The notes below the pieces were generated by a model. The model worked only from the letters and a program-made list of their open reading frames with translations, was not told where the DNA came from and did no database searches. Source: Escherichia phage vB_EcoM_IME392. Taken from it: a DNA stretch of 64,000 nucleotides. This document shows positions 10,066 through 59,504 of the stretch, in pieces. The translations under genes and the position numbers were made by a program. The stretch lies in sequence record MH719082.1, one strand, 5' to 3'. Each line of letters begins with the position of its first letter. Within the stretch, counting starts at the first letter, position 1.

Positions 10066-10067
10066 AA

Positions 10068-29823: not shown

Positions 29824-29826
29824 GCC

Positions 29827-40202: not shown

Positions 40203-42002
40203 ATGTCTGCACCACGCGTAAGCTATGCGGAGCGCGATCTGAGTGCGTACGTTCCTGCCACTGAGACTATTTATGCGGCTATCGTAGTTGATGCTGTTAA
40301 AGGTCCGGTAGAGAAACCGATCGTGCCTGGCAATGCTCCCAACTTCCTGAAAATCTTTACGCCAAATGAGCAAATCGACATCGGTATGTCTACTGCGCAC
40401 TTCTCTGCGCTAACCGTGTTGGAGAAATACTCCAGCGTGGTGGTAGTTCGTGCTGCTTCTGCTGATGCTCGCTATTCAGGCGCTCTGGTAAATAAAGACG
40501 GTACCGTCGTTACTGCCAGTGATATTAAAGATCCGTCTGCAGTGGATATGGACGACGAGTCCTTCCTGATCGCAGCAGCTAACCAGGGTCTTTGGGGTGA
40601 TGAACTCCGCTTCCAGGTACTCGGCTATAAAGCTACTGAGACTGTCGCCGTAACTGGTGGTATTCTTAAGTCTACCCAGAAATGGGGTGCTGGTTATCCG
40701 GTTAAACTGGCTGGCTCTAACCTGCCTGCTGAAGTAAATGATTACACCACTTACTTCGCAGTACCTGCTGCTGGTGGTATTAAGCTGGCAACCAGCCGAG
40801 CTAATGCTACCGCATCTACTCCTGTTACATTGACCGTGTCCGATGCTACTGGAGTTATCGTATCTCCAGCTGTGGAGTACACCAAGATCCCTAATACCTT
40901 CAATCTGCGGGTATTTAAAGCGGACGATCTGGTTAATCCAGTGCTGGACGTAATCGGTTCTAAGATCAATGGTCTTAAGGATCAGGACAATAAGTCTCTG
41001 TACATCGAAGATGTTACTGCCGACAATATCTACGCTCAGGTGTTTAATAACCCTCTGAACACTGATCCGGTTACTGACATCGTTATCCCAGCAGCATTGG
41101 GTGGTGGTTCTAACGGATCTCCTGTTACCGATGGAGACTGTATTCGTGCTCTGAATAAGCTCAACAACCCTCGTGAATTCGCTATTAAAGTGATCATGAA
41201 CGGTGGTCGTACTTCTCAGGCATACGGTTCAGCGATCATCGCACTGGCAGAGTCCCGTGCTGACTGCGTCGGTATTACCTCGGTTCCTCTGACTGCACAG
41301 GGTGGTGTATCTCCTGCCCAGTCTATGGTTAACTATCGTAAGCACGACACTAACTGGGATACCAGTTATGCTGCCATGTATGCGCCTCACGTTAAGATCT
41401 ACGATCGTTACAACGACCGTAATCTGTGGGTATCTCCGGACGGCGTTGCGACGAAGGCTATCTTCGATACCGCATCTAACTTCGAGATCTGGTACCCAGT
41501 GGGTGGTAACAAGCGTGGCGTGGTTAACGTGCTGGATACGTACGTACACCTGCTAGACTCTGACCAGGATCTTCTGTATGATGCGGGTATTAACCCTATC
41601 GTATTCGAAGAAGGAGAAGGTATCAAGATCTGGGGTCAGAAGACTCTTCAGTATGCCAGCTCTATGCTGGATCGTCTGAATGTCCGACTCCTGCTGGTTA
41701 CCATCGGTCCGGCTATCCGTAAACTGCTGGCGAACTTCCTGTTCGAATTCAACGATGCGGATACTCGTGCGCTGGCTAAAGGTATGGTCGATACCTATAT
41801 GGATTCGATCATGGCTCGTCGCGGTGTTACTAAGTATGTCACTATCTGTGATGATACCAACAACACTGCAAGCGATGTGGATAACCATATCCTGCGAGTA
41901 AGCCTGCTGGTTTGCCCGAATAACTCGACCGAATACATCCCTCTGACTATTGGTATTACCAATAACAGTGTGGACTTCGATCTGGCCGCGGAAGCACTGT
42001 AA
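40203..42002 (+). CDS. Tail sheath protein
   Basis: 599 aa, AAGGAG RBS, high-expression codon usage, immediately upstream of the tube gene; size typical of contractile-tail sheath proteins. Confidence 0.6.
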   Translation: MSAPRVSYAERDLSAYVPATETIYAAIVVDAVKGPVEKPIVPGNAPNFLKIFTPNEQIDIGMSTAHFSALTVLEKYSSVVVVRAASADARYSGALVNKDGTVVTASDIKDPSAVDMDDESFLIAAANQGLWGDELRFQVLGYKATETVAVTGGILKSTQKWGAGYPVKLAGSNLPAEVNDYTTYFAVPAAGGIKLATSRANATASTPVTLTVSDATGVIVSPAVEYTKIPNTFNLRVFKADDLVNPVLDVIGSKINGLKDQDNKSLYIEDVTADNIYAQVFNNPLNTDPVTDIVIPAALGGGSNGSPVTDGDCIRALNKLNNPREFAIKVIMNGGRTSQAYGSAIIALAESRADCVGITSVPLTAQGGVSPAQSMVNYRKHDTNWDTSYAAMYAPHVKIYDRYNDRNLWVSPDGVATKAIFDTASNFEIWYPVGGNKRGVVNVLDTYVHLLDSDQDLLYDAGINPIVFEEGEGIKIWGQKTLQYASSMLDRLNVRLLLVTIGPAIRKLLANFLFEFNDADTRALAKGMVDTYMDSIMARRGVTKYVTICDDTNNTASDVDNHILRVSLLVCPNNSTEYIPLTIGITNNSVDFDLAAEAL

Positions 42003-42012
42003 GGAGATCAGG

Positions 42013-42537
42013 ATGCCGCCTATTACTTTGGATCAAGTCCGCAATCTGGGAGACTTCGCCACGATCGTCGACTGGGAATTACAGTTCATCACTGTACCTT
42101 CCGGCCTGAATAATCTGTCGGATGCAGTCTTCCTGCGTTGCGAATCTTCGGATATTCCGAAAAAGACTGGTACTTCCACATCTATCCAGATTCGTGGTCT
42201 GGTGCCAGTTAAACAGCCTGGGATTTACGCTCCTCCTCAGACTCTTACACTAACCTGTAACGAAACTGTGGATAACGCAATCGCTCAGCAGATTGCTAAC
42301 TGGCGTGAAATGTGCTACCAGACTGGTACTGGTGTTGCTGGTCGTACTCAGGATGTTAAGGCGAAACTGCGTCTTAAACGTCTGAATCGTCAGAAAGTCG
42401 GTATCTGGTATTATGATCTCGAAGGTGTATTCCTGGAAGATTATGATGCTGGTGGCCAGCTGGGCTCTACTTCGGCTGACGTACTGAAACCAGTCCTGAC
42501 GTTGTCCTACGACGACTTCAAGGAAGGAGCTCTTTAA
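42013..42537 (+). CDS. Tail tube protein
   Basis: ORF track 41950..42537; the ATG at 42013 is preceded by AAGGAG, giving about 175 aa (tube-protein size) directly after the sheath gene. Confidence 0.55.
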   Translation: MPPITLDQVRNLGDFATIVDWELQFITVPSGLNNLSDAVFLRCESSDIPKKTGTSTSIQIRGLVPVKQPGIYAPPQTLTLTCNETVDNAIAQQIANWREMCYQTGTGVAGRTQDVKAKLRLKRLNRQKVGIWYYDLEGVFLEDYDAGGQLGSTSADVLKPVLTLSYDDFKEGAL

Positions 42538-42551
42538 TAGAGAGGTAGACC

Positions 42552-43028
42552 GTGTTTTTGAATAATGTTCAACAAGTACGGTCTATCGAATGGGGACAAA
42601 TGCACTTGTGGGATGTAAGATTCCCTGATGCTCCGTCCCCATTCTCCGACTGGTTTCCTGCTACGGATTATCAGTTGAACTCAGTAACTGGGTTAGCTAT
42701 GTCTCAGCAGTTTTACATGCGAGATTTTAAGTTCCCCCAGAGTAAAGGATCTCCGGATTTAACATTCCAGGTATTGGACGATGAGAAGATGACACTCCAT
42801 GAGTGGTATCAGCATTGGTTCGATGAAATATACCAGGAATCTTCCGGAGTACTTACTTTAGCTGAGTGTGTTAGACCAGTTATAGTAGCTACCTTAAATC
42901 GTCAGAGACAGAGAGTGTTGTTAGAGACATTCTATGTATTCCCAGACGGTGCGGTAAACAGAAGTGGCTCGTCCAATTCGGATCAAGTCAACTTCACAAT
43001 GAACTTCATCATAGCAGGTAAGAACTAA
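42552..43028 (+). CDS. Hypothetical tail protein (possible tail assembly chaperone)
   Basis: 158 aa, GTG start with GAGGTAG RBS; sits between the tube and tape-measure genes. Confidence 0.4.
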   Translation: MFLNNVQQVRSIEWGQMHLWDVRFPDAPSPFSDWFPATDYQLNSVTGLAMSQQFYMRDFKFPQSKGSPDLTFQVLDDEKMTLHEWYQHWFDEIYQESSGVLTLAECVRPVIVATLNRQRQRVLLETFYVFPDGAVNRSGSSNSDQVNFTMNFIIAGKN

Positions 43029-43034
43029 GGATCA

Positions 43035-43865
43035 ATGATGGAAACTGTATCTCGTGAAGAATTAGCGTCCCAGAAGGCTTCCGAGGAAGTCGTTGCTGCG
43101 ACTCCTGTAGTCGATCCGGCTACGTCAGACTCTACTGGTATTCTGATTACCGCGGAACAGCTTCCGTCTCGGTTCTTAGCTTACCCTGCTGGTACCACTA
43201 TTTCGTATAAGCCCTACAGCTTCGGCGAAGTAGAGAGATGGTCCCACGGTAAGATGACTCTTGAGCAGAAGATCGAACTAACCTTCGCCAACATCGAAAC
43301 TCGCGGTATAACTAAGGGACAGATCGTATTCGAAGATCTCCTCCTTATTATGGTACTCCGTAAGTTAACCACGTTCTCTAAGAACGAGTGGCGTCTTTCC
43401 TACACATGCCCAGGTTGCCAGGAATATATCTCCTCTAGCCGTAGCTTAAGCGAGATTATCTTCCAGGACTTAACCGAAATAGAAGAATTGCCTATTATCC
43501 TCGATCTTCCTAATGGGGATACTCTGGAATTCACCCCGTTTACGGTTGATGATATGATGGTGTGCCGTCGTATCTCTCCCGAGCGCTCTGCGGAAGTAGA
43601 GTTGCCTAAGATGGTCCGTAATAAGACCTACGAAGAAGCCAAGAAGATTATCCTCGAGAATAAAGACTCTGATATAATTCAGGCTCTTCAGATGATCGAC
43701 GAGATTCTTGACTTTGGTCGCCAGTATATTGAATGTGCTTGCCCTAAGTGTGGACATAAGGCCGAAGTAACGGTCAAGGGGGTAAGCCAACTGGCGGAAC
43801 CGTTTCGTAGAGATGAAGTCTCTATTAAACATCTCATCTCTTTTGGCAAGAAGAAACATGGTTGA
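43035..43865 (+). CDS. Hypothetical tail-assembly protein with two CxxC zinc-ribbon-like pairs
   Basis: 276 aa; CPGCQEY and CPKCGHK. Confidence 0.4.
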   Translation: MMETVSREELASQKASEEVVAATPVVDPATSDSTGILITAEQLPSRFLAYPAGTTISYKPYSFGEVERWSHGKMTLEQKIELTFANIETRGITKGQIVFEDLLLIMVLRKLTTFSKNEWRLSYTCPGCQEYISSSRSLSEIIFQDLTEIEELPIILDLPNGDTLEFTPFTVDDMMVCRRISPERSAEVELPKMVRNKTYEEAKKIILENKDSDIIQALQMIDEILDFGRQYIECACPKCGHKAEVTVKGVSQLAEPFRRDEVSIKHLISFGKKKHG

Positions 43866-43943: not shown

Positions 43944-46802
43944 ATGGTTAGCATAGTTAGAGGCATATCTGGGATTGCTCGTACAGAAGCTACCGATCCG
44001 ATTAAGGATGCCTCTGATTACGAGCATGCCAGGTCTAAATTGGAAGAAGATCTTATCGGGATCCGTTCTACGGTTAAGATACTCTCCAGCAACGATGTAG
44101 ATGTAGGTCTTAGCTCCGATGAAGTTAAGACCCTGAATACACTGATGGGTAAGTTTTACGGCAGGGCTAAGTTCTCTACCCAGGAAGCTGAGCAGCTGAT
44201 CTCCTTAAGAGATAAAGTCGGCCAGGTTGCGGATATGTACGCTACTGCCGAGGATCAAAAGGCCATCGCTGCGGAATCTTTACTCGACACCTATCAGTCA
44301 ATATTAAATGACTCTAGACTTACTCGTGGCGTCCGTATGACTGCTATGAGAGAACTGAGTGGGTTACTTCGGGTACTTAACGTATCCAATTCCTCACTTA
44401 GTACTATCAATATGCGGAAGAATAACCGCATCATTGAGCAAGCTAGAGCTGAGTTAGCCAATCAGAACGTAAAGATTAAATATTCTGATACGGTAAAGGT
44501 TGCTAACTTAACGAACAGGAGTAAGGATGAGAGGGATACTCTTGACAGATTTAACATACGTCAAACTGGCCGTAATTTAAGGGATTCGTTCCTTAATACC
44601 CCATCGCAGTTTTCCGTAGGTTCTGTCCGCAAGGAAGCACTCTCATCAGGTCTAGGTGCCTTAGGTTTAGGGGACCTGGATAGTGTATTCGGTATATCTG
44701 ATAAATTGGATGGTGCCATATCATCCATGTTCCGTAAAAGGAAAGATGAACCGGATACTACTGACGAAGAATTAAAGGCCATATCTCGAGAGATTCTTAA
44801 ATCAGAAAATAAACCCGATGGAGAATCTTCCACTGAGGCCTCTGCTAAAGTCGACGGTAAAGAGGCTAAGGTCGAGATTACTACTCCAGATGCTACTGTA
44901 AATCCAAAACCCAGTTTCGGACCTACTCCAGAAGAGGAGCAGAATCAGAAGCTGGACGAGATTAACAACAGCATTCGAGAGTTAATTAATGAGACTAGGT
45001 CTGGCCAGGACGAACTGTCCCGTAAGCAGACTCAGTTAATTAATGGTCAGTCTACTTTGGTGGATATCGATGAGCAACTGGTATCGGTAACCAGAGCTAA
45101 TGGAAGAGCTAACCATGAAGAAATTGATCCTTTCGCTAACGAACAGAAGCAGGGTGCTGCTGATTCTATCTTTGATGATCTTATCGGTGGTGGCGATGAG
45201 CGTGGCCGCAGAGGTAGAAGAGGTAGGGGAAGAAGAGGCAGGACTCGTCTCGGTCGTGGACTCAGCAGGTTCGGTAGACTCGGCAGGATGGCAGGCAGAG
45301 CAGTCGACGCAGCTGCCACCGGAGGACTTGCGAGAGGTGCTGCTCGTGGAGGTGGTGCGCTTCTGAGAGCTGGCCTTAAGGGAGCTAAGTTCATCCCAGG
45401 AATCGGGTTAGCCGTAACTGCTGGTATGGGAGTTTATGATGCTGTCTCTGGATGGGATGGAGATAAGGCTAAGGAACTATTCGGTAGTGACGATAACTGG
45501 GCTAAGGCTGGCTCATCTGCAGCCTCACTATCCTCTGGGTTAACTTTAGGGTTAGCATCTCCAGAGGATGTAGTGAATGTCGCTAAGTCTGCTGTAGATA
45601 CTGTACAGAAGACATACGAAGGTGCGGTTAATATTGCAAATAACCTAACGGCGTCATTCTCAGGGATGTATAAGAATGCGTCCGACTGGCTTTCCAAGTC
45701 CGTCTCCGATACATCTAAGTGGTTCTCCGATAGTTACGACTCAGTAACCAAGTCCATAACCGGAGAAATCAGTGAATTATCTAACTTGGTTACAGAATTT
45801 ATAAATGATCCTATGAAGTCTATAGGTGAAGGTATTGGTGGCCTATTTGATTGGCTATCAGACCTACCGGTAGTCGGTGACTTCTTTAAAGGACTTAAGA
45901 AAGGAGCTGTTGCGGTATCCAATGGGATTATCGGAGCAGGTGCCTCCATAGTTAATGGCGCAAGAGCTGTTGGTGGAATAATATCCAATGGTTATGACAG
46001 TGCTGTTGATGCCGGTGGTAGTATCCTACAGTCCGCTATGCAGAATGCCTCTCGATACCTCCCAAGCTCTAAGGAGCAGACGGAGCGTAAGAACAATCTG
46101 GCAGAGTATGCTAAGCAGCAGGGAATCGACGATAAAGAATTGGCTCTATTCATGGGCCAGGTTCAGCATGAATCTGGTAACTTCCGTTATAATAAAGAAC
46201 TAGCCTCTGGTAAAGCGTACGAGGGTCGTAAAGACCTGGGTAACGTAAATCCTGGGGACGGGGTTCGTTATAAGGGTCGTGGCTGGATACAGCTTACTGG
46301 TAGGGCTAATTACCAGAAATATGGTAAGATGCTGGGTATAGATCTCGAAAATAATCCGGAGATGGCTGAAGATCCTGAAATCGCCAATAAGTTGGCGGTT
46401 GCATATTGGAAAGATCGTGTGCGACCACAGCTGGAGAAGAAAGGATCTACTGTTGAAGTGGCAACTAAGGCAGTCAATGGTGGGTATAATGGGTTAGCAG
46501 ACCGTGCTGCATATACTGCAGAATGGATGAAGAATGGTTCTGATGCTGAGGCATCTAAGTCAGGAGCTACCCAGGTTGCTCAGAACGTACCTCTCGAGGT
46601 CCCTAAAGCTCCTACCCCTACAGACGATGTTAATAAACAACGTCAAGATCAGAATAATCAATTGGCTGCTATGGCTGCTGGTTCCACCAGAAATCAGGAT
46701 CCTGCTGCTATAACTCCTAACGTACCTTCAGTGGTTACGGATAAGAGTGACACTATTGATGACTATGGTCTGGCGTTCTTCAACAAGATGGTGTTCTCAT
46801 AA
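43944..46802 (+). CDS. Tail tape measure protein with C-terminal GH19-like peptidoglycan hydrolase domain
   Basis: 952 aa. N-terminal coiled-coil, central Arg/Gly repeat (GRRGRRGRGRRGRTRLGRG), Gly-rich hydrophobic segment, and C-terminal FMGQVQHESGNF...YKGRGWIQLTGRANY (GH19/lysozyme-like motif). Sits between the tube/chaperone and baseplate genes. Confidence 0.65.
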   Translation: MVSIVRGISGIARTEATDPIKDASDYEHARSKLEEDLIGIRSTVKILSSNDVDVGLSSDEVKTLNTLMGKFYGRAKFSTQEAEQLISLRDKVGQVADMYATAEDQKAIAAESLLDTYQSILNDSRLTRGVRMTAMRELSGLLRVLNVSNSSLSTINMRKNNRIIEQARAELANQNVKIKYSDTVKVANLTNRSKDERDTLDRFNIRQTGRNLRDSFLNTPSQFSVGSVRKEALSSGLGALGLGDLDSVFGISDKLDGAISSMFRKRKDEPDTTDEELKAISREILKSENKPDGESSTEASAKVDGKEAKVEITTPDATVNPKPSFGPTPEEEQNQKLDEINNSIRELINETRSGQDELSRKQTQLINGQSTLVDIDEQLVSVTRANGRANHEEIDPFANEQKQGAADSIFDDLIGGGDERGRRGRRGRGRRGRTRLGRGLSRFGRLGRMAGRAVDAAATGGLARGAARGGGALLRAGLKGAKFIPGIGLAVTAGMGVYDAVSGWDGDKAKELFGSDDNWAKAGSSAASLSSGLTLGLASPEDVVNVAKSAVDTVQKTYEGAVNIANNLTASFSGMYKNASDWLSKSVSDTSKWFSDSYDSVTKSITGEISELSNLVTEFINDPMKSIGEGIGGLFDWLSDLPVVGDFFKGLKKGAVAVSNGIIGAGASIVNGARAVGGIISNGYDSAVDAGGSILQSAMQNASRYLPSSKEQTERKNNLAEYAKQQGIDDKELALFMGQVQHESGNFRYNKELASGKAYEGRKDLGNVNPGDGVRYKGRGWIQLTGRANYQKYGKMLGIDLENNPEMAEDPEIANKLAVAYWKDRVRPQLEKKGSTVEVATKAVNGGYNGLADRAAYTAEWMKNGSDAEASKSGATQVAQNVPLEVPKAPTPTDDVNKQRQDQNNQLAAMAAGSTRNQDPAAITPNVPSVVTDKSDTIDDYGLAFFNKMVFS

Positions 46803-47437
46803 TGGCAGTATTAGACATCGAGAAGCTATACGCGAATCCAGATGCTAGAATTGTCTTAGTCCATCCTGGTAACAAGTCCCGTACTGTAGGTCTTATAGAG
46901 ACGGATTTCGGATTCGATATTTCGTCTCTGTTTGAATCTGGTGAAAACTTGATGGCTGGTACCTTAACGCGAGGTGCTAACGCGGTAGCTAATACCGTGG
47001 GTATGGATCAGATGGTTATACGAAATATTCGTGAAACTATCGCTCAGTGGCGAGGAAGTACCAAACCAGTATTTCCAGTGCCTCTGACAATTATCTCATA
47101 CAATCCATCCATCAGACCTTTGGACATAGTTAAAGAGTTCCTGGCTGGGGTAACATACACTACCAAGAACGGACTTATGTTCGGAGCTCCTAATGGGTAC
47201 TCTGTAACCAAGGCGACTGGTAATTTCAATCCGGATACCGCTATAACAGGTACATGGACTCTGCAGATCGGCCAGTGGTTCAGGGCAACTAGCCTTATAC
47301 TCGTGAACGTGTCGACTCAGTACAGCAAGGAAATAGCTCGCTCTACTGGTCAGCCGTTATGGGCTAAGGTGCAACTGTCCTTCACCCCAGCATATCTGCC
47401 GGATGAGGATCATGTAAGATCCTGGTTTATTAAATAG
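46802..47437 (+). CDS. Hypothetical tail/baseplate protein
   Basis: 211-aa ORF, ATG overlapping the tape-measure stop. Confidence 0.4.
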   Translation: MAVLDIEKLYANPDARIVLVHPGNKSRTVGLIETDFGFDISSLFESGENLMAGTLTRGANAVANTVGMDQMVIRNIRETIAQWRGSTKPVFPVPLTIISYNPSIRPLDIVKEFLAGVTYTTKNGLMFGAPNGYSVTKATGNFNPDTAITGTWTLQIGQWFRATSLILVNVSTQYSKEIARSTGQPLWAKVQLSFTPAYLPDEDHVRSWFIK

Positions 47438-47444
47438 GTGACTT

Positions 47445-47822
47445 ATGTTCAAGATAGACTCAGACAAATTGGCTCAGAGGTATGATATCTCTAAATTCAT
47501 GTCTAATGAGAATGGGTCTATCTTGGACTCTGTTGATTCTGAATTTATGTACAAACTGAAGAATCTTTCTCGGTATGGTACATATACAGTGATCTCAGAA
47601 GTGGGTAGACCCGACCTACTCTCAGAACGAATCTATGGTGCTGGATTGACTCAGTACTGGTGGATTCTTATGATGGTGAATGAGTTGCGGTTCCCATGGG
47701 ACTTAACCATGAACTTAGTTCTGAGATATCCACTGATTGACGATCTGGAAGATATTTACTTCTCGCTGACTCCAGATGTGTCATCTGTCTCCGCTACTGC
47801 TAAAGTGGAGAGCTTATCATGA
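47445..47822 (+). CDS. Tail protein X-like (LysM-like domain)
   Basis: 125 aa. YTVISEVGRPDLLSERIYGAGLTQYWWILMMVNELRFPWDLTMNLVLRYP resembles the LysM-type pattern of P2 gpX-like proteins. Confidence 0.45.
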   Translation: MFKIDSDKLAQRYDISKFMSNENGSILDSVDSEFMYKLKNLSRYGTYTVISEVGRPDLLSERIYGAGLTQYWWILMMVNELRFPWDLTMNLVLRYPLIDDLEDIYFSLTPDVSSVSATAKVESLS

Positions 47823-48943
47823 TAGGTGTAAAAGGTCAATATGTTGCCATGTTTAAGATTGGCGACTTTAAAGACTTCATCGGCCCTAGAGATCTTATCC
47901 AGTTTAAGATCATCGAAGAGGCTGGTAACGTTATGCCTACTTATGAGCTAGTTTTCGAGTGCCGAGATGAGCAAATAGTCTCAGTACTCAAGGAAGGCAA
48001 TTTCATTTATGCCAGTTTCGGTCGTAACGAAGCTAGCATGATTAACGTTAAGTTAGCCATCCTAAAACGTCAGAAAACTAATTTCGGAGTAGGGTCTCAA
48101 ATCCTCAGAGTACTGGGAGTCTTCGGAGCTGTTCCGTACAGAATAGATTCCCAGGCAGCAAGTCATACTGGTACCTCAATAGAGGTGATGAAGTCTATAG
48201 TCTCTAAGTATTTTAAGGCAGACTTCAATTGCCCAGCATCTGATAACAAGATGAACTGGCTGCAGAATAACATTAACGATCGAGATTTCGTTAACCAGTT
48301 ATGGCTTCACAGTAATTTAAACTCCGATACTCCATTGGTAGGTATTACTACTGATGGTTTGTTTAGGGTCCGGTCTATCTCTACAGCAGTGGACAGGAAT
48401 AATCCTAACTGGAAGTTAACTTCCCTAGAGACCAAAGATGCCGGTGCTATTTATTACGATAAGCCACCTAACATCTATAGCGATTCAGGAGCAGTAAATG
48501 CTCTTGGTGGCTATGCCAAATCCAGGATTGTTCACAATCAGAGCGACAATCAGTCGTTCTACTCCACTCCTCAGGGATCCCCTATCCTATCAGTATCGAG
48601 TAATCAGGAAGTCTCGGATACGGGACGGCGTCTGGGAGGAGTGTCCATCCTTAATGAGAATGTACATTCTTCCTACCATTCGTCCTTCGATTACAACATC
48701 CGAAACCTCCTCCGATTATCCATGATGAAAGCCAAGGTCGAGATTACTGGGTATTATTTCAATATCAGAGTTCTCGATTCTGTGTTACTTAAAGAAGACT
48801 CTGATGCTCGTCGTAAGGAAGCCAATATGGATTCGTCAGGTCTTTGGCTAACCCAGAAGGTGTGCAGGATCTTCACTAACAAAGACTTATGTACCGTCCT
48901 TACGTTATGCAGAGATGGGATGAATAATTCCAGAGAGGTTTAA
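47819..48943 (+). CDS. Baseplate hub protein (gpD/Mu gp44-like, putative)
   Basis: 374 aa, directly upstream of the spike, W and J homologues; assigned by position and size. Confidence 0.4.
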   Translation: MIGVKGQYVAMFKIGDFKDFIGPRDLIQFKIIEEAGNVMPTYELVFECRDEQIVSVLKEGNFIYASFGRNEASMINVKLAILKRQKTNFGVGSQILRVLGVFGAVPYRIDSQAASHTGTSIEVMKSIVSKYFKADFNCPASDNKMNWLQNNINDRDFVNQLWLHSNLNSDTPLVGITTDGLFRVRSISTAVDRNNPNWKLTSLETKDAGAIYYDKPPNIYSDSGAVNALGGYAKSRIVHNQSDNQSFYSTPQGSPILSVSSNQEVSDTGRRLGGVSILNENVHSSYHSSFDYNIRNLLRLSMMKAKVEITGYYFNIRVLDSVLLKEDSDARRKEANMDSSGLWLTQKVCRIFTNKDLCTVLTLCRDGMNNSREV

Positions 48944-48945
48944 GT

Positions 48946-49605
48946 ATGATAAATATTATAGACCTCATGCGTAATGGTCAGGATCCTCTGAAGGCCATCC
49001 ATAAGGGAGTAGTCGTTGATAATAACGACCCTGCCCAAAAATGCAGAGTAAAGGTTAGGGTTCCTGGGGTACTCGATGGTGATGGTATCCCATGGGCCAT
49101 TCCTATTGCATCTGCATTCCTGGGGGATGGGGAATCTGACCGTGTGGAAATACCAGAAGTAGGTACCGAGGTATCTGTCTCGTTCCCCACAGGAGATCAG
49201 CATTTCCCATTCTACACTGGGAGATGGCACTCTAAGGAAGTCCCGGAAGAGTTTAAAGAGAATTATCCCAATAGGTACGGATTTAAGGATTCTACCGGCA
49301 CTGTATTCTATATAGATAAAGTGTCTAAGGAAGTTCATTTTAAGCACTGTTCTGGATTTCAGTTCGATATTGACCAAGAGGCTAATTTTACTCTCACCAC
49401 CCCAGGAGGAGGTAAGGTCGATATCGCTAAAGCTCTGGAGATAATCGCCAAAGAGCATATCAAACTGGATACTCCTCTTGTCGATGGAACAGGAGAGATC
49501 AAGGACAAGGTTCGCAAGATGTCGGAAGATCGCGCTATCTACAACGGTCACGATCATGTTGGCGATAGTGGTGGTAGTACATCTCCGCCTAACTCTAAAC
49601 AGTAG
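48946..49605 (+). CDS. Baseplate central spike protein (gpV/Mu gp45-like)
   Basis: 219 aa. N-terminal OB-fold-like pattern GVVVDNNDPAQKCRVKVRVPGVLDGDGIPWAIPI...VGTEVSVSFPTGDQHFPFYTG, typical of gpV-type spike proteins. Confidence 0.6.
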   Translation: MINIIDLMRNGQDPLKAIHKGVVVDNNDPAQKCRVKVRVPGVLDGDGIPWAIPIASAFLGDGESDRVEIPEVGTEVSVSFPTGDQHFPFYTGRWHSKEVPEEFKENYPNRYGFKDSTGTVFYIDKVSKEVHFKHCSGFQFDIDQEANFTLTTPGGGKVDIAKALEIIAKEHIKLDTPLVDGTGEIKDKVRKMSEDRAIYNGHDHVGDSGGSTSPPNSKQ

Positions 49606-51351: not shown

Positions 51352-52822
51352 GTTCAACACTCTAGATTACTTCTCTCCTAACCTTAGAGGGAACGAGTTA
51401 TATAAGTTCTTCTCGCAGGTGCTGGATCATGGTCTAGAGACTGTTGTCTTTCCGGAGATGGATAAAAATACGGCGATTTATGATCCTAGTAAACCGTCTT
51501 ATGATCCGATTTATATCCTGGAGCTACTGGGTCAACCAGACTTAGCAGATCTCATAACTACCGAGGTAGACCAGAACTCAGTATCTGTACTCCTCCCAAG
51601 TATCCTTGATAACAAGGGTATGAAGGATGGGGTTGATCTTATCTTTAAGCTGATAAATGTAGAGATAGAAGAGATATTGTATCAGAAGACTCCGGAAGGC
51701 TGCTCACTGGCAACCATCCTGCTTCCTAAGAACGTGATCTTGTCTACTCGGCAGATTAAGCTAATTGATCGTCTGTCGCGTAAGGTATTTCCGATATGCG
51801 TAAGACTTACCGGTATCGCTAACTGTCTTCCAGATGGCGTTGAATCTCTCGGAAGCGCCTCCTTGGACACCAGTTGGTTGCTAGACACATCAATCCTGGA
51901 TGGTTCAGTAGGTATACGAGTCCCAGATATTTCGGATACTCTATGGCTGCGATTCTGTCTCGATATTATGTCGGAGATGGAAGTACCTCTTGAAGTGTTG
52001 ATTGATCGCTTCTCGGATCGTCTGATGAACTCTTATCTGACTGTATTCGATAGGAGAACTATCAAGCTAGATAATGGTCTTATTCTGGATATGGGTACAT
52101 ACTTAGATCTCCAGAATACCGACACTGCTCACAGCAGACTCTATAGCTCATTGGCTAAGTTTAATGTAGATTTAAGCGCCGATTCCAGAACTACTGAGAT
52201 TGAGTCCTTACTGGACTTATCAGACTTGGTAGCTGGGTTGGAGTTTAAGTCCTCTATGCTGCGTGAGATCTTCCTGTTCTTGGATATCGACCTCTCAGAG
52301 TTCGGATTCCAGAATTACATGGATAGGAAGATAGAGCACTTATCCAAGGGGATAGAGCAAGTAAATTATGGATATGAGGGTGGTAATTACGCTGATGGTT
52401 ACGATTTAACTAACTATCAGGGTTTCGAATACGAGAACTTATACGTAATCCAATCTCATCGTGATGGCCAAACTCAGCGTAGCGGGACGGCTTATTACGG
52501 ATTGCCGGAAATAGACTGGCTACACTTCGAAGGTATGGACTTCATTAATGGGTCTTACCTGCTGGATGGTACTCGTTATCTTCACCAGGAGTTCATTAAA
52601 AAGATCAAAGTGTACGATTGGTATACTCATTGGTCTAGCTACCGAGAAGCTATGTTCCTAACCACTCATAAGACCGAAAGACTCTTAGAGAAACGGGATG
52701 GGACTATTCTCCATGACGGAACTTATAATCGCGGTGAGAAAGTAACTCGTTACGGATTCGAACCTCTGTACAACGACGTTATTAGTCACGATGATACTTA
52801 CTATCGCGATGCCAATCTATAG
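51329..52822 (+). CDS. Baseplate/tail protein (gpI-like position; possible fibre-attachment protein)
   Basis: 497-aa ORF following the J-like gene; true start may be the ATG at 51344. Confidence 0.4.
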   Translation: MRGMSMAKFNTLDYFSPNLRGNELYKFFSQVLDHGLETVVFPEMDKNTAIYDPSKPSYDPIYILELLGQPDLADLITTEVDQNSVSVLLPSILDNKGMKDGVDLIFKLINVEIEEILYQKTPEGCSLATILLPKNVILSTRQIKLIDRLSRKVFPICVRLTGIANCLPDGVESLGSASLDTSWLLDTSILDGSVGIRVPDISDTLWLRFCLDIMSEMEVPLEVLIDRFSDRLMNSYLTVFDRRTIKLDNGLILDMGTYLDLQNTDTAHSRLYSSLAKFNVDLSADSRTTEIESLLDLSDLVAGLEFKSSMLREIFLFLDIDLSEFGFQNYMDRKIEHLSKGIEQVNYGYEGGNYADGYDLTNYQGFEYENLYVIQSHRDGQTQRSGTAYYGLPEIDWLHFEGMDFINGSYLLDGTRYLHQEFIKKIKVYDWYTHWSSYREAMFLTTHKTERLLEKRDGTILHDGTYNRGEKVTRYGFEPLYNDVISHDDTYYRDANL

Positions 52823-52830
52823 GTGATTAG

Positions 52831-53598
52831 ATGAGCAATTATACTGGGGCATTTAACTTTCATGCTCAGGTGTACCAATTTGAAGAAAGTGATGTGGTTA
52901 AAGGTGGCCCGGACGGCATTGATAACGTGCCTCTTACCCAGCTGTCAGATCGTACGTTTTATCTTAAGGCTCTTGCTGACTTTACATTCCTTAAGCTATT
53001 CAATCTTAATCCTCTCGGCTCGTTCAAACAAGGATTCCAGATTAACGTGGCTGGGTATGCGGTCTTCGACGAGGCCTCCGGTAAGTGGTTTAAGTGGACA
53101 GGATCTCTACCTAAAGTAGTGGTTAAGTCTTCTAAGCCAGAAACTACTGGAGGTATCTATGATCCAACCACCAATCCGAGCGGTAAGTGGGTGGCTATTG
53201 ACTTCAGTGTTCTAGACCTTGGCGCTGGGGTTAAGATCCCTACAGCAGCTGCTCCTGGTAATCTGTATAGCGGTAAGTACAATCCAGCCTTCGTTAAGAT
53301 TGAGAATGTCTCCAATCTAGACATAGCAGAAGCCATATATACCAGACTAGGGAATGTGGTTACTGTTAATGGCAAGATCACTGCTTCTGCTACCGATGCC
53401 GGAGAAGTAATGAAAATAGGAATTGGCTTACCTATTAACGCTACCTTCTCAGATGACTCAAGCCTCTCAGGAGTTGGCGTTGGTATAGTAGCTGGTCAGA
53501 TTTATGCCGATGTGGACAGTAGTGTGGCTGTTCTTGAGATTAATCAGGGTAGTACAGACGAGCTGTCTCTGAGATACACGTTCTCTTACACTATATAA
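52831..53598 (+). CDS. Tail fibre/adapter protein with shared N-terminal attachment module
   Basis: 255 aa. N-terminal GGPDGIDNVPLTQLSDRTFYL and SGKWFKWTGSLPKVVVKSSKPETTGGIYDP are shared with ORFs 53611, 59505 and 62616. Confidence 0.5.
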   Translation: MSNYTGAFNFHAQVYQFEESDVVKGGPDGIDNVPLTQLSDRTFYLKALADFTFLKLFNLNPLGSFKQGFQINVAGYAVFDEASGKWFKWTGSLPKVVVKSSKPETTGGIYDPTTNPSGKWVAIDFSVLDLGAGVKIPTAAAPGNLYSGKYNPAFVKIENVSNLDIAEAIYTRLGNVVTVNGKITASATDAGEVMKIGIGLPINATFSDDSSLSGVGVGIVAGQIYADVDSSVAVLEINQGSTDELSLRYTFSYTI

Positions 53599-53610
53599 TA
53601 GGATATCGAA

Positions 53611-54528
53611 ATGGGTACTTATCAGGGTAAAAATCAGTACGTAGAGGACATCTATACCTTCGAACGTACTGACAAAGTGTCGGGTGGTGATGACGGTATT
53701 GATAACGTACCCATTAAGAATCTTACCGACAGAACTACATATCTCCGTAGTCTAGCATTGAATTCATTCCTGGATATCTATGGGATTAACCCAGTAGGTA
53801 CTTTCGGGATAGGATTTGATCTCCAGGACTCTGGGGATGGTGTGTATGACGAGGTGTCTGGCAAGTGGTATTACTGGCTAGGCTCCTTCCCCAAATCTGT
53901 TGCCGAGAATTCTTCTCCGGAAGATACTGGTGGTATCTTCGACCCAGAAAGTAATCCAGATGGATTATGGACTGAGGTAATTCCGGTAAACCAGCGTCAG
54001 GTAGATATGGCTGCTCGGGCATTCCGAGTTAAGACCGAAGAAGTCCAGTTCATGAAAGTAGGTCGTCCTCTCGACGGCTTTCGTGTATTGTATGACTTAG
54101 CTTCCCAGGAAGCTTATCGTTTACCTATGGATATCCCTGAAGGATCAACTATTGTTAGCTTAACAGACGGAGGGTGGCTAGAGCATAGCAATGGCAGGGT
54201 AAACTTATCTGCTTACGCCGTCGAATTAGAAGAGTATAAGTACTTTACCGGAGGCGACTTCAGTACCGGCTTTACTCTACGTCAGAACCACTGCATAGTT
54301 ATGCATGATGGTGTTCTGTATCGCTGGGATGGCGATTTTCCGAAGACCGTAAATGCTAACAGTACTCCAGAATCAGACGGTATTGGTGATGGTAAATGGG
54401 TTCCTGTTAAGACTGGTGCCCTGTATCGCTATGCTACTGTTGCCCAGTTAGATAGTGTTGAGAATGCTCTAACTACTCGCATAAACGAAGTAGAGAGCGC
54501 CGCTTTTGTTAACGCATTACTGTTCTAA
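53611..54528 (+). CDS. Tail fibre/adapter protein (paralogue of 52831..53598)
   Basis: 305 aa. GGDDGIDNVPIKNLTDRTTYL and SGKWYYWLGSFPKSVAENSSPEDTGGIFDP, plus a second copy of the module near the C-terminus (VLYRWDGDFPKTVNANSTPESDGIGDGKWVPV). Confidence 0.5.
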   Translation: MGTYQGKNQYVEDIYTFERTDKVSGGDDGIDNVPIKNLTDRTTYLRSLALNSFLDIYGINPVGTFGIGFDLQDSGDGVYDEVSGKWYYWLGSFPKSVAENSSPEDTGGIFDPESNPDGLWTEVIPVNQRQVDMAARAFRVKTEEVQFMKVGRPLDGFRVLYDLASQEAYRLPMDIPEGSTIVSLTDGGWLEHSNGRVNLSAYAVELEEYKYFTGGDFSTGFTLRQNHCIVMHDGVLYRWDGDFPKTVNANSTPESDGIGDGKWVPVKTGALYRYATVAQLDSVENALTTRINEVESAAFVNALLF

Positions 54529-54537
54529 GGAATACCC

Positions 54538-54879
54538 ATGGCAGCTAAATTTAAACGAGCTAGCGCTACGCTAACTAAATCTGAATCTACCATTTATACT
54601 ACTCCGGCTACTGGTGCTATAATCGTTGGAATCCTGGCAGCCCATAATGGTGTTACAGATGCTGCAGCTCAGTTTCAGCTTAAGATTAAACCTGCATCTG
54701 GAAATGATGTATACCTGCTAGGTAAAGACACTAATCTTCCTCAGAAGTCGGCATTGAATATCGATTCTGCTAAGGTAATTCTCATGGATGGTGATCAGGT
54801 AGTAGCTTCAGCATCTGCTGTAGATACTTCTAATAACTCGAACATGGTAGACCTGACTCTTTCCATTGTGGAGAACTAA
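54538..54879 (+). CDS. Hypothetical tail protein
   Basis: 113-aa ORF with AAGGA RBS. Confidence 0.4.
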   Translation: MAAKFKRASATLTKSESTIYTTPATGAIIVGILAAHNGVTDAAAQFQLKIKPASGNDVYLLGKDTNLPQKSALNIDSAKVILMDGDQVVASASAVDTSNNSNMVDLTLSIVEN

Positions 54880-54880
54880 T

Positions 54881-56227
54881 ATGGGTGGTTATATTGGTTT
54901 CAATCCATCTGATGGTGCTGGTGAACTTCGTAATGAATTGACTCCTAAGATCAAGAACAACCAGGATAACATCATCGAGTTGTGGGCGAATGACTTAGCC
55001 GATTGTGGTTACAATCTGGCAGCTACTTTCGAGTTCGGTGGTATCTTATCTAACCGATTCGATCTGGTAGTATCTCTTGATCGTCAGCGTGCATATTCAT
55101 GGAAGGGTAACTTTCCAGTAGATATTGCAAACGCACCTATCACCCATTCTAATTGGGTACCTTGGTCGATCGACCAAATGGGTGCTGGTAACTTATTGGA
55201 AGTTAAGTGGGTATCCTCTCGTAAGTTATTAGGGTCACCATTATGGGGTGGATTCGTAGCAGCTGATGGTGGTATCTTCTCACGTATCTTGTATCCTGAT
55301 ACTTGGGCAGCAGTCAATGCTGGACTAGTACAAGTATGTCCTGAAGCTGACTGGGTAGCTGATCCTACTAAGCGCCACTGCTATACTACTGGTGATGGTA
55401 CTACTACCTTCCGAGTACCTGACTTAAATGGTGCGTACCGTCATCCTAGTGACTCCTCTAAGAACTCCATTCCAGGATTATTCTTACGTGGTGATAATGG
55501 TAGTGACTACGGATACGTCCAGCGTAATGCTGCACCTAATATTACTGGTATTATACAAGGTCGTACTTCTGGTACTTATGGTCGACTATTCAGTCAATCT
55601 ACTATTAATAGTGGAGCATTACAAACTAGTGATGAGAATGGTGGTGAATTCGCTACTGGTACAGTAACTGCATCGACTCCATCTGATCGTATGAGTAAGT
55701 TACTATTTGATGCATCAAAATCACTTACACCAGGTGCTGAGGCTTACGGTCGTGCTGAACCTAATGGTGCACCTGCTGATGAAGTCCGACCTAACAGTGC
55801 AGTAGGTTGTTACGCTATCCGTCTACAAGGTCGAGTTGTGAATCCCGGTACGGTGGATCTGTTATCATTAGTTGATACAGTTGCAGGTATGACTATAGGT
55901 AATACACCTAGCAGTAATCAGATTCCTAACATGAAGCATTGGACTCGTGGAGGGTCAGGTCGTGCATGGTGGAGGAAAGAACCTGATGGATTCATTAGAC
56001 AGGGAGGATTCTTTACTGCTAATGTTAGACCTGGTTCAGGTACTAAAGTGTACGTTGATGTAACATGGGCTATACCATTCCCTAATGAATGTAACTCAGT
56101 AACCGTAGGTGATGCTGGATTCGGTGATGGTAATATGTGGGGCGCCACTAATATCACCAGGACTGGAGCTCGTTTATGGTGTAGCGCAGTAGGCGAGGGT
56201 GGTTACTACTTGGCTGAGGGCTACTAA
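54881..56227 (+). CDS. Tail fibre protein with phage tail-collar-type domain (receptor-binding protein 1)
   Basis: ORF track 54866..56227; ATG at 54881. Contains YPDTWAAVNAGLVQVCPEADWVADPTKRHCYTTGDGTTTFRVPDLNGAYRHP, a tail-collar-type motif. Followed by a Tfa-like chaperone gene. Confidence 0.55.
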   Translation: MGGYIGFNPSDGAGELRNELTPKIKNNQDNIIELWANDLADCGYNLAATFEFGGILSNRFDLVVSLDRQRAYSWKGNFPVDIANAPITHSNWVPWSIDQMGAGNLLEVKWVSSRKLLGSPLWGGFVAADGGIFSRILYPDTWAAVNAGLVQVCPEADWVADPTKRHCYTTGDGTTTFRVPDLNGAYRHPSDSSKNSIPGLFLRGDNGSDYGYVQRNAAPNITGIIQGRTSGTYGRLFSQSTINSGALQTSDENGGEFATGTVTASTPSDRMSKLLFDASKSLTPGAEAYGRAEPNGAPADEVRPNSAVGCYAIRLQGRVVNPGTVDLLSLVDTVAGMTIGNTPSSNQIPNMKHWTRGGSGRAWWRKEPDGFIRQGGFFTANVRPGSGTKVYVDVTWAIPFPNECNSVTVGDAGFGDGNMWGATNITRTGARLWCSAVGEGGYYLAEGY

Positions 56228-56655
56228 TGGCTAATTATCTATATAGCAATTCTCGTAAATCGTTCTATCCAGTATCGTTAATAGAAAATTATCAAAATAG
56301 CATAAACGGATTACCTGAAGATTTAGTAGAAGTCAGTGATTCTGACTTTAATGAATTTTCTCAGAGTCGTACTAATGAGTGCTGTAATTTAACTGAATCA
56401 GGATTCGAGTGGATTCCTAAAGGTCCTGAACCAGTATCAGTCGAAGATGCTCATCGTATCAAGAGTATCTTGATAAATAGTGCTAATAAGACTATTAGTA
56501 CCTGGCAGACTAAGTTGATGCTTAATAGACTATCTGACGAAGATAAAGTCAAACTGAATGCTTGGTTGGACTACATCGATGAGCTGGAAGCTATCAATCC
56601 TGACTCAGTAGAAGATACATCAGCTATCCCGTGGCCTACTGCTCCTGAAGCATAA
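56227..56655 (+). CDS. Tail fibre assembly protein (Tfa-like chaperone) 1
   Basis: 142 aa. C-terminus LSDEDKVKLNAWLDYIDELEAINPDSVEDTSAIPWPTAPEA, paralogous to 58118..58726; lies directly downstream of a fibre gene. Confidence 0.55.
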   Translation: MANYLYSNSRKSFYPVSLIENYQNSINGLPEDLVEVSDSDFNEFSQSRTNECCNLTESGFEWIPKGPEPVSVEDAHRIKSILINSANKTISTWQTKLMLNRLSDEDKVKLNAWLDYIDELEAINPDSVEDTSAIPWPTAPEA

Positions 56656-56666
56656 AGAGGTATAAA

Positions 56667-58118
56667 ATGTCAAATGGATATATTGGTACCTACCCTAAAT
56701 TCGCTATTTATTCTCCTGAGAAATTGGCGAAAGGTACCACCACTAAGACTCTGCAGTATGCTCCAGGATCAGCTTATGCAATTCTGGTAGTAGTAGGCGG
56801 GGCGATTCAGGAACCTAACGTAGCCTATACTGTAGCAGGTAATGTCATTACTTTCACGGAGACGCTCCCGTACGATGGATGGGTTCAGTACCGTGGACTT
56901 GAAGGTAAGGATGCTACTGACTTTATCGCAGCTGCAGGTGATCCAGTACTATCAGCACGTTGGGCATTCTCACGTGATCATATCTGGGATGGATTCGTTC
57001 CACTAGATGGTCAGGAATTATCTCGTGCTATGTACCCGTCAGCATGGGAGGCTATCAATGCTGGATTAGTACCAGTCGAGGATGATGCTGCATGGTTGGC
57101 TGATCCCAAGAAACGTGCATCGTTTACTAAGGGTGATGGTACTTCAACATTCCGAGTACCTGACCTTAATGGTAAGTTGGGTGATTCTATAAAGGGACTG
57201 CACATCCGTGGAGATAATGGTGATTCAGCTCGTACCGGTAAAGTACTCCAGAATGGCGCTCCGAATATTACAGGATACACTAATTTATTAGGGTATAACA
57301 CATGGGCAAATAATGCCGGAGCGGCCAACGGTGCATTAAACTTAAGCCAGGGTTTAGCATTCTCCAACGGTACCGATTTAGTTGTAAACTCTTCTTACAG
57401 AGAATTAAGAGCTAATTTAGATGCATCTAAATCTAATGCATCTTATGGTCGTGACGGCACTGATGAAGTGCGTCCTAATGCAGCTATTGGATGCTGGGTA
57501 GTCAAGTTATTCGCAGGTATCGCTAATGCTGGTGTAGCTGATCTGCAGCAAGTGCTAGTCACGTTAGCTGGTAAGATGGATAAGACCAAGTACGAATTCG
57601 GTGTACCAATGATTGGCGTACCATTCTACTGGCCATCGGATAAGATGCCTGATGAAGTATATCCTGAGCTGAAAGGTATGCACTTCATCCAAGCTCGTGG
57701 TGATAACTTCGATGCTGAACTGTATCCTAAGTTAGCTACTGTTTATCCTAATAATAAGTTACCAGATTTACGTGGTGAATTCATCCGTGGTTGGGATGAC
57801 GGACGTGAAGTGGATACTGGACGAGCTCTGCTATCGCGTCAATCACATTCAATTATTGAACACTCACACTATATGGAGTTGTGGACAGGTGACGTACTTC
57901 ATTCTGGGGATGCTAGAGATGGGGTAAATGCAGGAGTACTGGCTACCTATGGTGATGGTGGGTCAATTAAATCTGACGAATCAGGTAATCATGTACCCTC
58001 CTTAGTACGAGCTATTAATACTCGTAATATTAATCGTTACAACGTAAATAGCGAAAATATAAGCACAGAAAACCGTCCACGTAACGTAGCATATAACATC
58101 ATTGTAAGGGCATTATAA
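56667..58118 (+). CDS. Tail fibre protein with tail-collar-type domain (receptor-binding protein 2; paralogue of 54881..56227)
   Basis: 483 aa. YPSAWEAINAGLVPVEDDAAWLADPKKRASFTKGDGTSTFRVPDLNGKL and KLPDLRGEFIRGWDDGREVDTGR. Confidence 0.55.
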   Translation: MSNGYIGTYPKFAIYSPEKLAKGTTTKTLQYAPGSAYAILVVVGGAIQEPNVAYTVAGNVITFTETLPYDGWVQYRGLEGKDATDFIAAAGDPVLSARWAFSRDHIWDGFVPLDGQELSRAMYPSAWEAINAGLVPVEDDAAWLADPKKRASFTKGDGTSTFRVPDLNGKLGDSIKGLHIRGDNGDSARTGKVLQNGAPNITGYTNLLGYNTWANNAGAANGALNLSQGLAFSNGTDLVVNSSYRELRANLDASKSNASYGRDGTDEVRPNAAIGCWVVKLFAGIANAGVADLQQVLVTLAGKMDKTKYEFGVPMIGVPFYWPSDKMPDEVYPELKGMHFIQARGDNFDAELYPKLATVYPNNKLPDLRGEFIRGWDDGREVDTGRALLSRQSHSIIEHSHYMELWTGDVLHSGDARDGVNAGVLATYGDGGSIKSDESGNHVPSLVRAINTRNINRYNVNSENISTENRPRNVAYNIIVRAL

Positions 58119-58726: not shown

Positions 58727-58801
58727 TATTTATTAAGGGGTAGTTATGTCAATTAATTACATGACTCCAGATAGTATCGTGATTGTAAGTGAGGTGTCAA
58801 T

Positions 58802-59425: not shown

Positions 59426-59504
59426 ATAAATAGCTACAATAGCAGGTGCAACTTGTACATGGGTTATGATAAACGAAGTGTTGACAATATCATAGGGTGA
59501 TTAA

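Follow-up and report, generated by a model that had tools for sequence, protein, structure and literature searches.

Escherichia phage vB_EcoM_IME392 (IME392) was analyzed over a stretch of 64,000 nucleotides of its sequence record MH719082.1. This stretch is referred to here as the window, and all positions are given in its numbering unless another phage is named. At 43944-46802 on the plus strand lies an open reading frame (ORF) that starts with ATG and has its stop codon at 46800-46802. An earlier note, made from the sequence alone, had marked out exactly this ORF as the gene of a tape measure protein carrying an Arg-Gly repeat and a lysozyme domain like those of glycoside hydrolase family 19 (GH19). 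The encoded protein of 952 amino acids (aa) is quite probably the tape measure of a contractile-tailed coliphage, with an intact GH19 domain of the endolysin type and a strongly basic Arg-Gly stretch built into it.

Public records name the protein only by its enzyme. In the IME392 record the 952-aa protein (100% identical, on a contig of 116,460 bp) is labelled 'putative glycoside hydrolase'. The counterpart in Escherichia phage EP_H11, the only related isolate in the phage collection searched, has a coding sequence with 91.9% nucleotide identity to the IME392 gene and is annotated 'membrane-bound lytic murein transglycosylase D precursor'. Neither is called a tape measure. Three more full-length relatives with 71-84% identity (BLASTP) come from assemblies of public sequencing runs. 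A first word-index search with the whole protein returned four close relatives only, and remote ones were reached by an exhaustive HMMER search with the N-terminal part: residues 1-715 retrieved 62 proteins, mostly of 400-2000 aa.

The features of the gene are listed below in their order along the DNA. Structural features were taken from AlphaFold2 (AF2) models, whose confidence is given as the predicted local distance difference test (pLDDT).

43944-46802, plus strand: whole gene, encoding the probable 952-aa tape measure protein with its embedded GH19 domain (ORF list)
44010-44693, plus strand: N-terminal folded all-helical domain, residues ~23-250 (AF2, pLDDT ~70-89)
44739-44927, plus strand: variable acidic low-complexity linker, residues ~266-328 (pLDDT <50, net negative charge)
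44928-45110, plus strand: long helix predicted for residues 329-389 (DSSP assignment from the AF2 model, low confidence; kept in close relatives)
45201-45287, plus strand: Arg-Gly run, R420-R448 (composition, shuffles, conservation)
45291-45578, plus strand: Gly/Ala-rich hydrophobic module, residues 450-545, KFIPGIGLAVTAGMG...SGLTLGLASP (PHROG 26249, hydropathy)
45819-46043, plus strand: second conserved motif (IGEGIGGLFDWLSDLPVVGDFFKGLKKG) and second Gly-rich hydrophobic stretch, residues ~626-700 (alignment, hydropathy)
46101-46538, plus strand: GH19 catalytic domain, endolysin subfamily, residues ~720-865 (Pfam, PHROG, PDB sequence matches, AF2, Foldseek)
46170-46172, plus strand: codon of E743, predicted catalytic proton donor in the HES motif (endolysin E49)
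46197-46199, plus strand: codon of E752, second catalytic Glu, nine residues past E743 (endolysin E58)
46296-46298, plus strand: codon of T785 (in IQLTGRANY), predicted water-coordinating residue (endolysin T130)
46539-46733, plus strand: Pro/Ala/Gln-rich low-complexity linker, residues ~866-930 (low pLDDT; variable in relatives)
46740-46799, plus strand: conserved C-terminal helix (TDKSDTIDDYGLAFFNKMVFS), residues 933-952, predicted plug of the tail tip or hub (alignment, AF2)

Protein Architecture and Family Plan

An alignment of 22 relatives follows one common plan. It begins with the N-terminal helical domain, the variable acidic linker, the long helix and a basic stretch. These are followed by the Gly-rich hydrophobic module (KFxPGxG...SGLTFGL), a helical region, and the second motif (IGxGxxxxFDWLxxLPVxGxFFKGLK) with its Gly-rich stretch. 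The plan ends with an enzyme module, a low-complexity linker and the C-terminal helix. The N-terminal domain has no match in Pfam or NCBIfam, and remote homologs align with it over residues 23-268 at 28-35% identity. The acidic linker is poorly conserved and carries indels among close relatives.

The hydrophobic module at residues 450-545 is the most widely conserved part of the family. PHROG 26249 matches residues 453-545 (E=1.8e-11), hydropathy peaks at residues 483-501 and G536 is nearly invariant. In the weaker remote homologs, the best stretch falls mostly within residues ~400-670 and usually spans this module, which is a candidate membrane-inserting segment. In the region of the second motif, P642 and G678 are nearly invariant and hydropathy peaks at residues 655-680. 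At the C-terminus, all 22 aligned relatives share the pattern DxIDDxGLAxFN, with an invariant D940, irrespective of their enzyme domain. The AF2 model predicts a helix at residues 940-951. In the myophages P7-1 and A-1(L), cryo-EM has located the C-termini of the tape measures as plugs of the tail tip. By analogy, the helix at residues 933-952 may be the element that docks on the tail tip or hub.

The enzyme module differs from one relative to the next. By Pfam, 60 homologs include 11 with a VgrG3-like C-terminal lysozyme, nine with GH19 and five with VanY, while Phage_lysozyme2 and Peptidase_M15_3 are found in two each and glucosaminidase, Amidase_2, NlpC/P60 and SLT in one each. On these predicted domain assignments, the wall-cutting module is a swappable cassette, for which at least nine hydrolase families have been recruited in orthologous proteins. 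GH19 domains also stand at the end of other very long phage proteins, in PhiEaH1 (2222 aa), Synechococcus phage S-N03 and Ralstonia phage RSL2.

The Arg-Gly Run

Directly upstream of the hydrophobic module lies a run of Arg and Gly residues, of which the string GRRGRRGRGRRGRTRLGRGLSRFGRLGR makes up residues 421-448. The 30-residue window 419-448 contains 14 of the 60 Arg in the 952-aa protein, together with nine Gly and no Lys, and has a net charge of +14. Over 20,000 shuffles of the protein, no such window held more than 11 Arg. In the AF2 model the run is predicted to be coil. The earlier note had placed an RG-rich segment at about 45180-45300, which fits the run at 45201-45287, and had called it unusual. 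This is so for its Arg density, which exceeds that of the shuffles, but not in the sense of an isolated feature. The 30-residue window with the highest positive charge anywhere in the protein was located in each of 46 remote homologs; in 38 of them it starts at most 150 residues upstream of the hydrophobic motif, against 9.1 expected under uniform placement. A nominal P of 8e-20 is overstated since the homologs are related, and this dependence has to be set against the argument from placement.

Close relatives keep the RG pattern, with a length that varies through indels. In remote relatives the equivalent stretch is often rich in Lys and poor in Gly, as in KKGKKKRKKKRGKK and KKKKKKNKKSRSKK, and the RG pattern is not conserved as such across the family. 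As far as these comparisons go, what is conserved is positive charge beside the hydrophobic module, and the IME392 run is its Arg-pure extreme. Because charge rather than RG is conserved, the comparison favours a general electrostatic role with an anionic partner, such as membrane head groups, the tube lumen or DNA, over an RGG-type motif or a passive spacer.

Both of the latter possibilities had been raised in the earlier note, which proposed nucleic-acid binding or a flexible spacer. A specific RGG/RG motif that binds the phage DNA at its leading end would agree with the RG/RGG-like composition, the predicted coil and the charge of +14, and a mere spacer would be expected to vary in length among close relatives as this run does. 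Remote relatives with many Lys and few Gly speak against the specific motif, and a mere spacer would not require the high positive charge that 38 of 46 homologs keep at a fixed place near the hydrophobic motif. An explanation of either kind is rather unlikely. DNA keeps its place as one possible kind of electrostatic partner, and to this extent the nucleic-acid proposal survives.

Several observations concern the DNA of the run. No tandem repeat was found under it by Tandem Repeats Finder (TRF). Among the 14 Arg codons of the run, 10 are AGA or AGG, whereas these two make up 20% in 15 other long ORFs. In the window the phage has two tRNA genes, tRNA-Met(CAU) at 26105-26180 and tRNA-Arg(UCU) at 26650-26725, both on the minus strand, and a link of tRNA-Arg(UCU) to the translation of late structural genes is possible. 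A programmed frameshift or alternative frame at the run was considered and rejected: no canonical slippery heptamer was seen by eye, and an overlapping plus-strand ORF at 45100-45366 has no support.

Probable Identity as a Tape Measure Protein

The gene lies within a tail module, of which the following genes surround it.

40203-42002, plus strand: tail sheath gene (Pfam Phage_sheath_1; PHROG 23, E=2e-62)
42013-42537, plus strand: tail tube gene (PHROG 4542 'tail tube'; the syntenic gene of relatives matches Phage_TTP_2)
42552-43865, plus strand: pair of conserved genes, for proteins of 158 aa and 276 aa, separating the tube and tape measure genes (conserved gene order)
46802-49605, plus strand: downstream baseplate genes (211, 125 and 374 aa) and gpV-type spike (Pfam Phage_base_V; PHROGs; gene order conserved in the relative L004)

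The order is sheath, tube, two small genes, the tape-measure gene, three baseplate genes, gpV, and wedge genes of the gpW and gpJ types, followed by fibres and spikes. The gene therefore occupies the slot of a tape measure, between tube and assembly genes on one side and baseplate hub and spike genes on the other. It is the only long ORF between tube and spike, and within the window the tail module has just one other ORF of comparable length, which encodes a tailspike. The same order is found around the gene of a relative that is 39% identical and carries GH19 (L004) and around that of a relative that is 25% identical and carries a VgrG3-like lysozyme (L005/L006).

Remote homology points in the same direction. 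Among 60 remote homologs, several match the tape-measure PHROGs 58, 167, 1272, 4200, 4070, 305 and 1535, and one matches Pfam Tape_meas_lam_C. One of the homologs is the representative of a cluster holding the protein of Bacillus phage AR9 that GenBank names 'tail tape measure protein'. The full-length AF2 model is confident only at residues ~23-250 and in the GH19 domain, with low-confidence helix and coil at residues 260-708. Apart from the compact residues 23-250, the protein is thus a long, mostly helical or unstructured chain with Gly-rich hydrophobic segments, as a tape measure should be.

Because no curated tape measure model matches the first 715 aa, the identity rests on gene order, architecture and transitive homology. 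Several results weigh against it. The first 715 aa have no Pfam match below E=0.05, and the whole protein has no NCBIfam match. A profile of the family searched against the PDB found enzyme domains only (GH19 and VgrG3) and no solved tape measure chain. The compact helical fold predicted for residues 23-250 is atypical of an extended tape measure. Finally, several folded enzyme copies of ~17 kDa (three to six) must fit into a narrow lumen or hub, a standing problem for all enzyme-bearing tape measures. When the fold of the full-length model was compared with predicted structures of viral proteins, GH19 dominated the results, and the matches named as tape measures had probabilities of at most 0.15 and were not usable.

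These gaps leave room for the alternative that the protein does not determine tail length. It would then be a separate tail- or baseplate-associated lysin or an ejection protein, with a role like that of T4 gp5 or phiKZ gp181, merely encoded between tube and baseplate genes while tail length is set otherwise. The missing curated family for the first 715 aa, the compact N-terminus and the public labels, which are limited to glycoside hydrolase or transglycosylase, would all agree with this, as would the labels 'tail associated lysin', 'tail fiber' and 'endolysin' of several PHROGs that relatives match. Against it, the tail module within the window offers no alternative tape measure, the remaining long ORF being the tailspike, and a gpV-like spike and a possible hub protein are separately encoded downstream. 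The slot and gene order are kept in distant relatives, which match at least seven tape-measure PHROGs and Tape_meas_lam_C and include the AR9 protein named as a tape measure. The conserved C-terminal helix moreover fits the tip plug of known myophage tape measures. A protein without a ruler function is improbable in this light. On position, conserved gene order, remote homology, architecture and C-terminus, the 952-aa protein is quite probably the tape measure, and its slot and its remote relatives bear out the same call made in the earlier note.

The two genes between tube and tape measure (42552-43865), among which a match to PHROG 150 was found, may encode tail assembly or hub factors. The 276-aa protein (43035-43865, plus strand) has a weak match to a T4 baseplate hub-like family (Pfam T4_baseplate, E=5e-5, below cutoff). 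At its C-terminus it carries a CxxC...CxxC zinc ribbon, for which the NCBIfam matches are also below cutoff. The place of this gene in the gene order is kept in distant relatives.

The tail module ends in a fibre and spike region that sets IME392 apart from EP_H11. At 52100-64000 (plus strand), one 330-bp stretch at 68% identity is the only nucleotide match to EP_H11, unlike the rest of the tail module, which is ~95% identical. Near 62.6 kb, an ORF begins whose translation by eye resembles another tail spike, and it runs off the end of the window. Between the two phages, an exchange of the host-range module appears to have taken place.

The GH19 Domain

A GH19 domain occupies the C-terminal region of the protein. 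Residues 730-827 score 37.5 bits with Pfam PF00182, above its cutoff of 25.5 (E=3e-9), and PHROG 181 'endolysin' matches residues 720-920 (E=2.4e-39). The best sequence matches in the PDB are phage GH19 endolysins, namely 9ms7 (2e-21), 7r6s, 9hqw, 9eoi and 4ok7. The domain was also compared with thousands of free-standing GH19 proteins of 170-260 aa, to which it is ~45-55% identical over the full alignment and at most ~60% identical in local BLASTP alignments. Several of these proteins are named glycoside hydrolase family 19 or (predicted) chitinase by their sources. An AF2 model of residues 701-880, built on 30 free-standing GH19 homologs, has a mean pLDDT of 92.9 and a predicted template modelling score (pTM) of 0.86. 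A Foldseek search of the PDB with this model gave 43 matches at E<=0.001, all of them GH19, with 9ms7 as the best (template modelling score 0.78). The alpha-helical, two-lobed, lysozyme-like fold of GH19 is present in the model.

The GH19 Engineering Database describes the endolysin core as A40, F42, A44, Q45, H48, E49 (proton donor), S50, E58 and T130 (water coordinator; PMC8547705). In IME392, A734, F736, G738, Q739, H742, E743, S744, E752 and T785 map one for one onto these positions. H742, E743, E752 and T785 are invariant in the alignment of 30 homologs. The motifs that the earlier note had quoted for a GH19-type domain lie at residue 739 (QVQHESGNF) and residue 776 (YKGRGWIQLTGRANY). Sequence match, predicted fold and catalytic residues agree with its assignment, and both a domain search, one of the checks that it had named, and the comparison of the predicted structure with GH19, part of its refuting condition, came out in its favour. 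By sequence and model, residues ~720-865 form a real GH19 domain, of the endolysin rather than the chitinase subfamily, for which muralytic activity is predicted. Its fold and catalytic residues are common to the endolysin of Salmonella phage SPN1S (PDB 4ok7) and to PWe2 (9ms7). Those are free soluble proteins of 180-260 aa that are released at lysis, whereas the IME392 domain forms part of a 952-aa tail protein and has no counterpart of the helical peptidoglycan-binding insert found in SPN1S.

An enzyme of this kind could serve the phage at entry or at lysis. A role at entry rather than lysis is most likely, judging from gene content, because EP_H11 has a separate endolysin and the spike is free of lysozyme. 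The gpV-type spike (219 aa; 48946-49605, plus strand) contains no lysozyme domain by Pfam. In EP_H11, a separate protein of 215 aa with the annotation endolysin is encoded directly after the tail-fibre genes; it matches the GH19 profile (E=1e-31) and is 33% identical to the tape measure domain. The EP_H11 locus is lysis-cassette-like (L008, 9678-11390, minus strand), and in its GH19 endolysin the usual HES around the catalytic Glu is replaced by FET. Three small ORFs follow; by eye, a hydrophobic stretch that looks membrane-spanning is present in the products of at least two of them (141 and 111 aa). No separate endolysin was found in the 64-kb window of IME392 by tblastn with the EP_H11 endolysin. 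Since the final 12 kb of the window are unlike EP_H11 and break off within a tail-spike ORF, an IME392 counterpart of the endolysin would lie beyond the window. That a separate endolysin has been seen in EP_H11 only is a point against the entry role.

The contrary possibility is that the domain serves mainly as an endolysin, or assists lysis from within when the infection ends. The identity of ~45-55% (at most ~60% locally) to free-standing GH19 proteins of 170-260 aa and the label 'endolysin' of the best PHROG matches would suit such a role, as would the lack of any other endolysin gene within the window. Yet EP_H11, at 92-95% identity, has its own 215-aa GH19 endolysin with small membrane-like genes in the usual layout of a lysis cassette, and the equivalent region of IME392 falls outside a window that ends inside the tail-spike genes. 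The domain is also flanked on both sides by conserved tape measure segments, which would lock it into tails, and the same slot holds other wall hydrolases in orthologs, a pattern of entry-associated lysins. A function in lysis is very improbable on these grounds. That the domain is a chitinase with an auxiliary metabolic function, or an inactive binding module, can hardly be believed: the Pfam family name 'Chitinase class I' and the label 'predicted chitinase' that sources give to some homologs would suggest a chitinase, but in the PDB sequence search endolysins score far above plant and bacterial chitinases (1e-21 to 1e-13 against 1e-10 or weaker), the sequence has the core residues of the endolysin subfamily together with both catalytic Glu, all of them invariant, and it belongs to a tail component of a phage that infects E. 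coli.

A Proposed Model for Genome Delivery

The features of the protein can be arranged into a model of its action during entry. In the virion, the mostly helical or unstructured chain would fill the tail tube, with its C-terminal helix (residues 933-952) plugging the tip or hub. On contraction of the sheath and loss of the spike, the tape measure would exit with its C-terminus first, and of its large parts the GH19 domain (residues 720-865) would enter the periplasm first, where it would cut glycan strands locally and open the wall for the tube and the DNA. The Gly-rich hydrophobic modules at residues 450-545 and 626-700 would then insert into the inner membrane and help to form a conduit for DNA. 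Membrane insertion by hydrophobic segments of the tape measure has been proposed for HK97, lambda and T5 (summarised in PMC12697256). The Arg-Gly run (residues 420-448), just upstream of the first hydrophobic module, may anchor or drive the membrane step electrostatically by binding an anionic partner; candidates are lipid head groups, the acidic lumen of the tube and the leading end of the DNA.

Comparison With Known Systems

One close parallel, likewise from a phage of E. coli, is the tape measure protein pb2 of T5, which has fusogenic hydrophobic segments as well as a muralytic domain at its C-terminus (Boulanger et al., 2008, cited in PMC4870245). In both phages, a ruler role, membrane-active hydrophobic segments and a peptidoglycan hydrolase near the C-terminus would be combined in one protein. 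The enzyme of pb2 is a metallopeptidase and not a GH19 glycosidase. The T5 tail, unlike that of IME392, is non-contractile, and no sequence similarity between pb2 and the IME392 protein was detected. In the mycobacteriophage TM4, a peptidoglycan-hydrolase motif of the tape measure promotes the infection of stationary-phase cells (Piuri and Hatfull, 2006; PMC1796659). A wall-hydrolase module is likewise embedded in the IME392 protein, for which a similar stationary-phase phenotype would be expected. TM4 is a mycobacterial siphovirus with small embedded motifs, whereas IME392 has a complete GH19 domain of 150 aa.

The jumbo myophages AR9 and PBS1 encode a protein of 1925 aa that is annotated 'tail tape measure protein' in AR9 and 'lysis domain protein' in PBS1, both labels being annotations. 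It shares the Gly-rich hydrophobic module, for which PHROG 26249 is the match in IME392; a member of its 90%-identity cluster is 48% identical to residues 450-543. A basic, Arg/Gly-rich stretch upstream, a wall hydrolase downstream and a contractile tail complete the likeness. The protein differs in being twice as long, in carrying a VgrG3-like C-terminal lysozyme rather than GH19, and in belonging to phages of a Gram-positive host. In the Erwinia jumbo phage PhiEaH1, the 2222-aa 'glycoside hydrolase family protein' (AGX01869), a very long protein of virion type, has a GH19 domain toward its C-terminus that is 51.5% identical over 157 aa; outside GH19 it has no similarity to the IME392 protein by tblastn, and its RefSeq name is tail fiber protein.

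A further comparison is provided by gp5 and gp29 of phage T4. As proposed for IME392, a component of the T4 tail digests the wall locally during entry driven by contraction, and hub-type genes stand beside the tape measure gene. In T4, the spike protein carries a GH24-type lysozyme and the tape measure has no enzyme. IME392 reverses this layout: its gpV-like spike of 219 aa has no enzyme domain, and the tape measure carries the enzyme.

Tape measures with wall-hydrolase modules are already known from TM4 and T5 pb2, and the public record already flags the GH19 domain of IME392. A literature search found no paper describing GH19 inside a tape measure. New here are the tape-measure assignment in a rare coliphage lineage, a clean case of GH19 within a tape measure in a contractile-tailed coliphage, and the family-wide pattern of enzyme cassette and basic stretch.

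Other Genes and Signals

Around the tape-measure gene, promoter-like sites occur at the level of chance (7 against 7.8 expected), while terminator-like sites are modestly above it (6 against 3.3 expected, standard deviation 1.7) and none is well placed.

Elsewhere in the window, three loci of the minus strand stand out. A full-length betaine/carnitine/choline transporter (BCCT) of 459 aa is encoded at 5577-6959 (Pfam PF02028, E=1e-92); it is an unusual auxiliary gene for a coliphage and is also present in EP_H11, where it is annotated BetT. Adjacent genes for proteins like subunit A of gyrase/topoisomerase IV and like GyrB, which would make up a type II topoisomerase, lie at 8818-12053. At 13374-16139, a 920-aa fusion joins an Mre11-like phosphoesterase to a Rad50/SbcC-like ATPase, which are usually encoded by two genes; its match to the Rad50 zinc hook is below the Pfam cutoff (20.3 against 24.3 bits).

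In EP_H11, outside the window, a gene at 29676-31244 (L007) is annotated as the beta' subunit of DNA-directed RNA polymerase. Together with the link of the tape measure to AR9 and PBS1, it gives a hint that a phage as small as 111-116 kb may encode a phage-type multisubunit RNA polymerase.

Implications

The combination of a basic stretch, a Gly-rich module, a swappable hydrolase cassette and a C-terminal plug might represent a widespread and undescribed tape-measure architecture, in which the polycationic segment is active in genome delivery. It would be common to the coliphages like IME392, the jumbo Bacillus phages AR9 and PBS1 and many uncultured myophages. This is a speculative suggestion and rather unlikely. 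If true, the polycationic segment could, for example, be drawn to the negative-inside membrane potential, or could clamp anionic lipids or the DNA end. It would thereby drive or position the neighbouring hydrophobic hairpin that opens a channel in the inner membrane.

The comparison of relatives is more useful than the single case of IME392. The enzyme is exchanged among them, and the basic stretch, the two Gly-rich hydrophobic motifs and the C-terminal helix stay fixed. These fixed elements offer testable landmarks for how the tape measures of myophages cross the cell envelope, and the cassette pattern suggests a natural scaffold for swaps of lysin domains in phage engineering.

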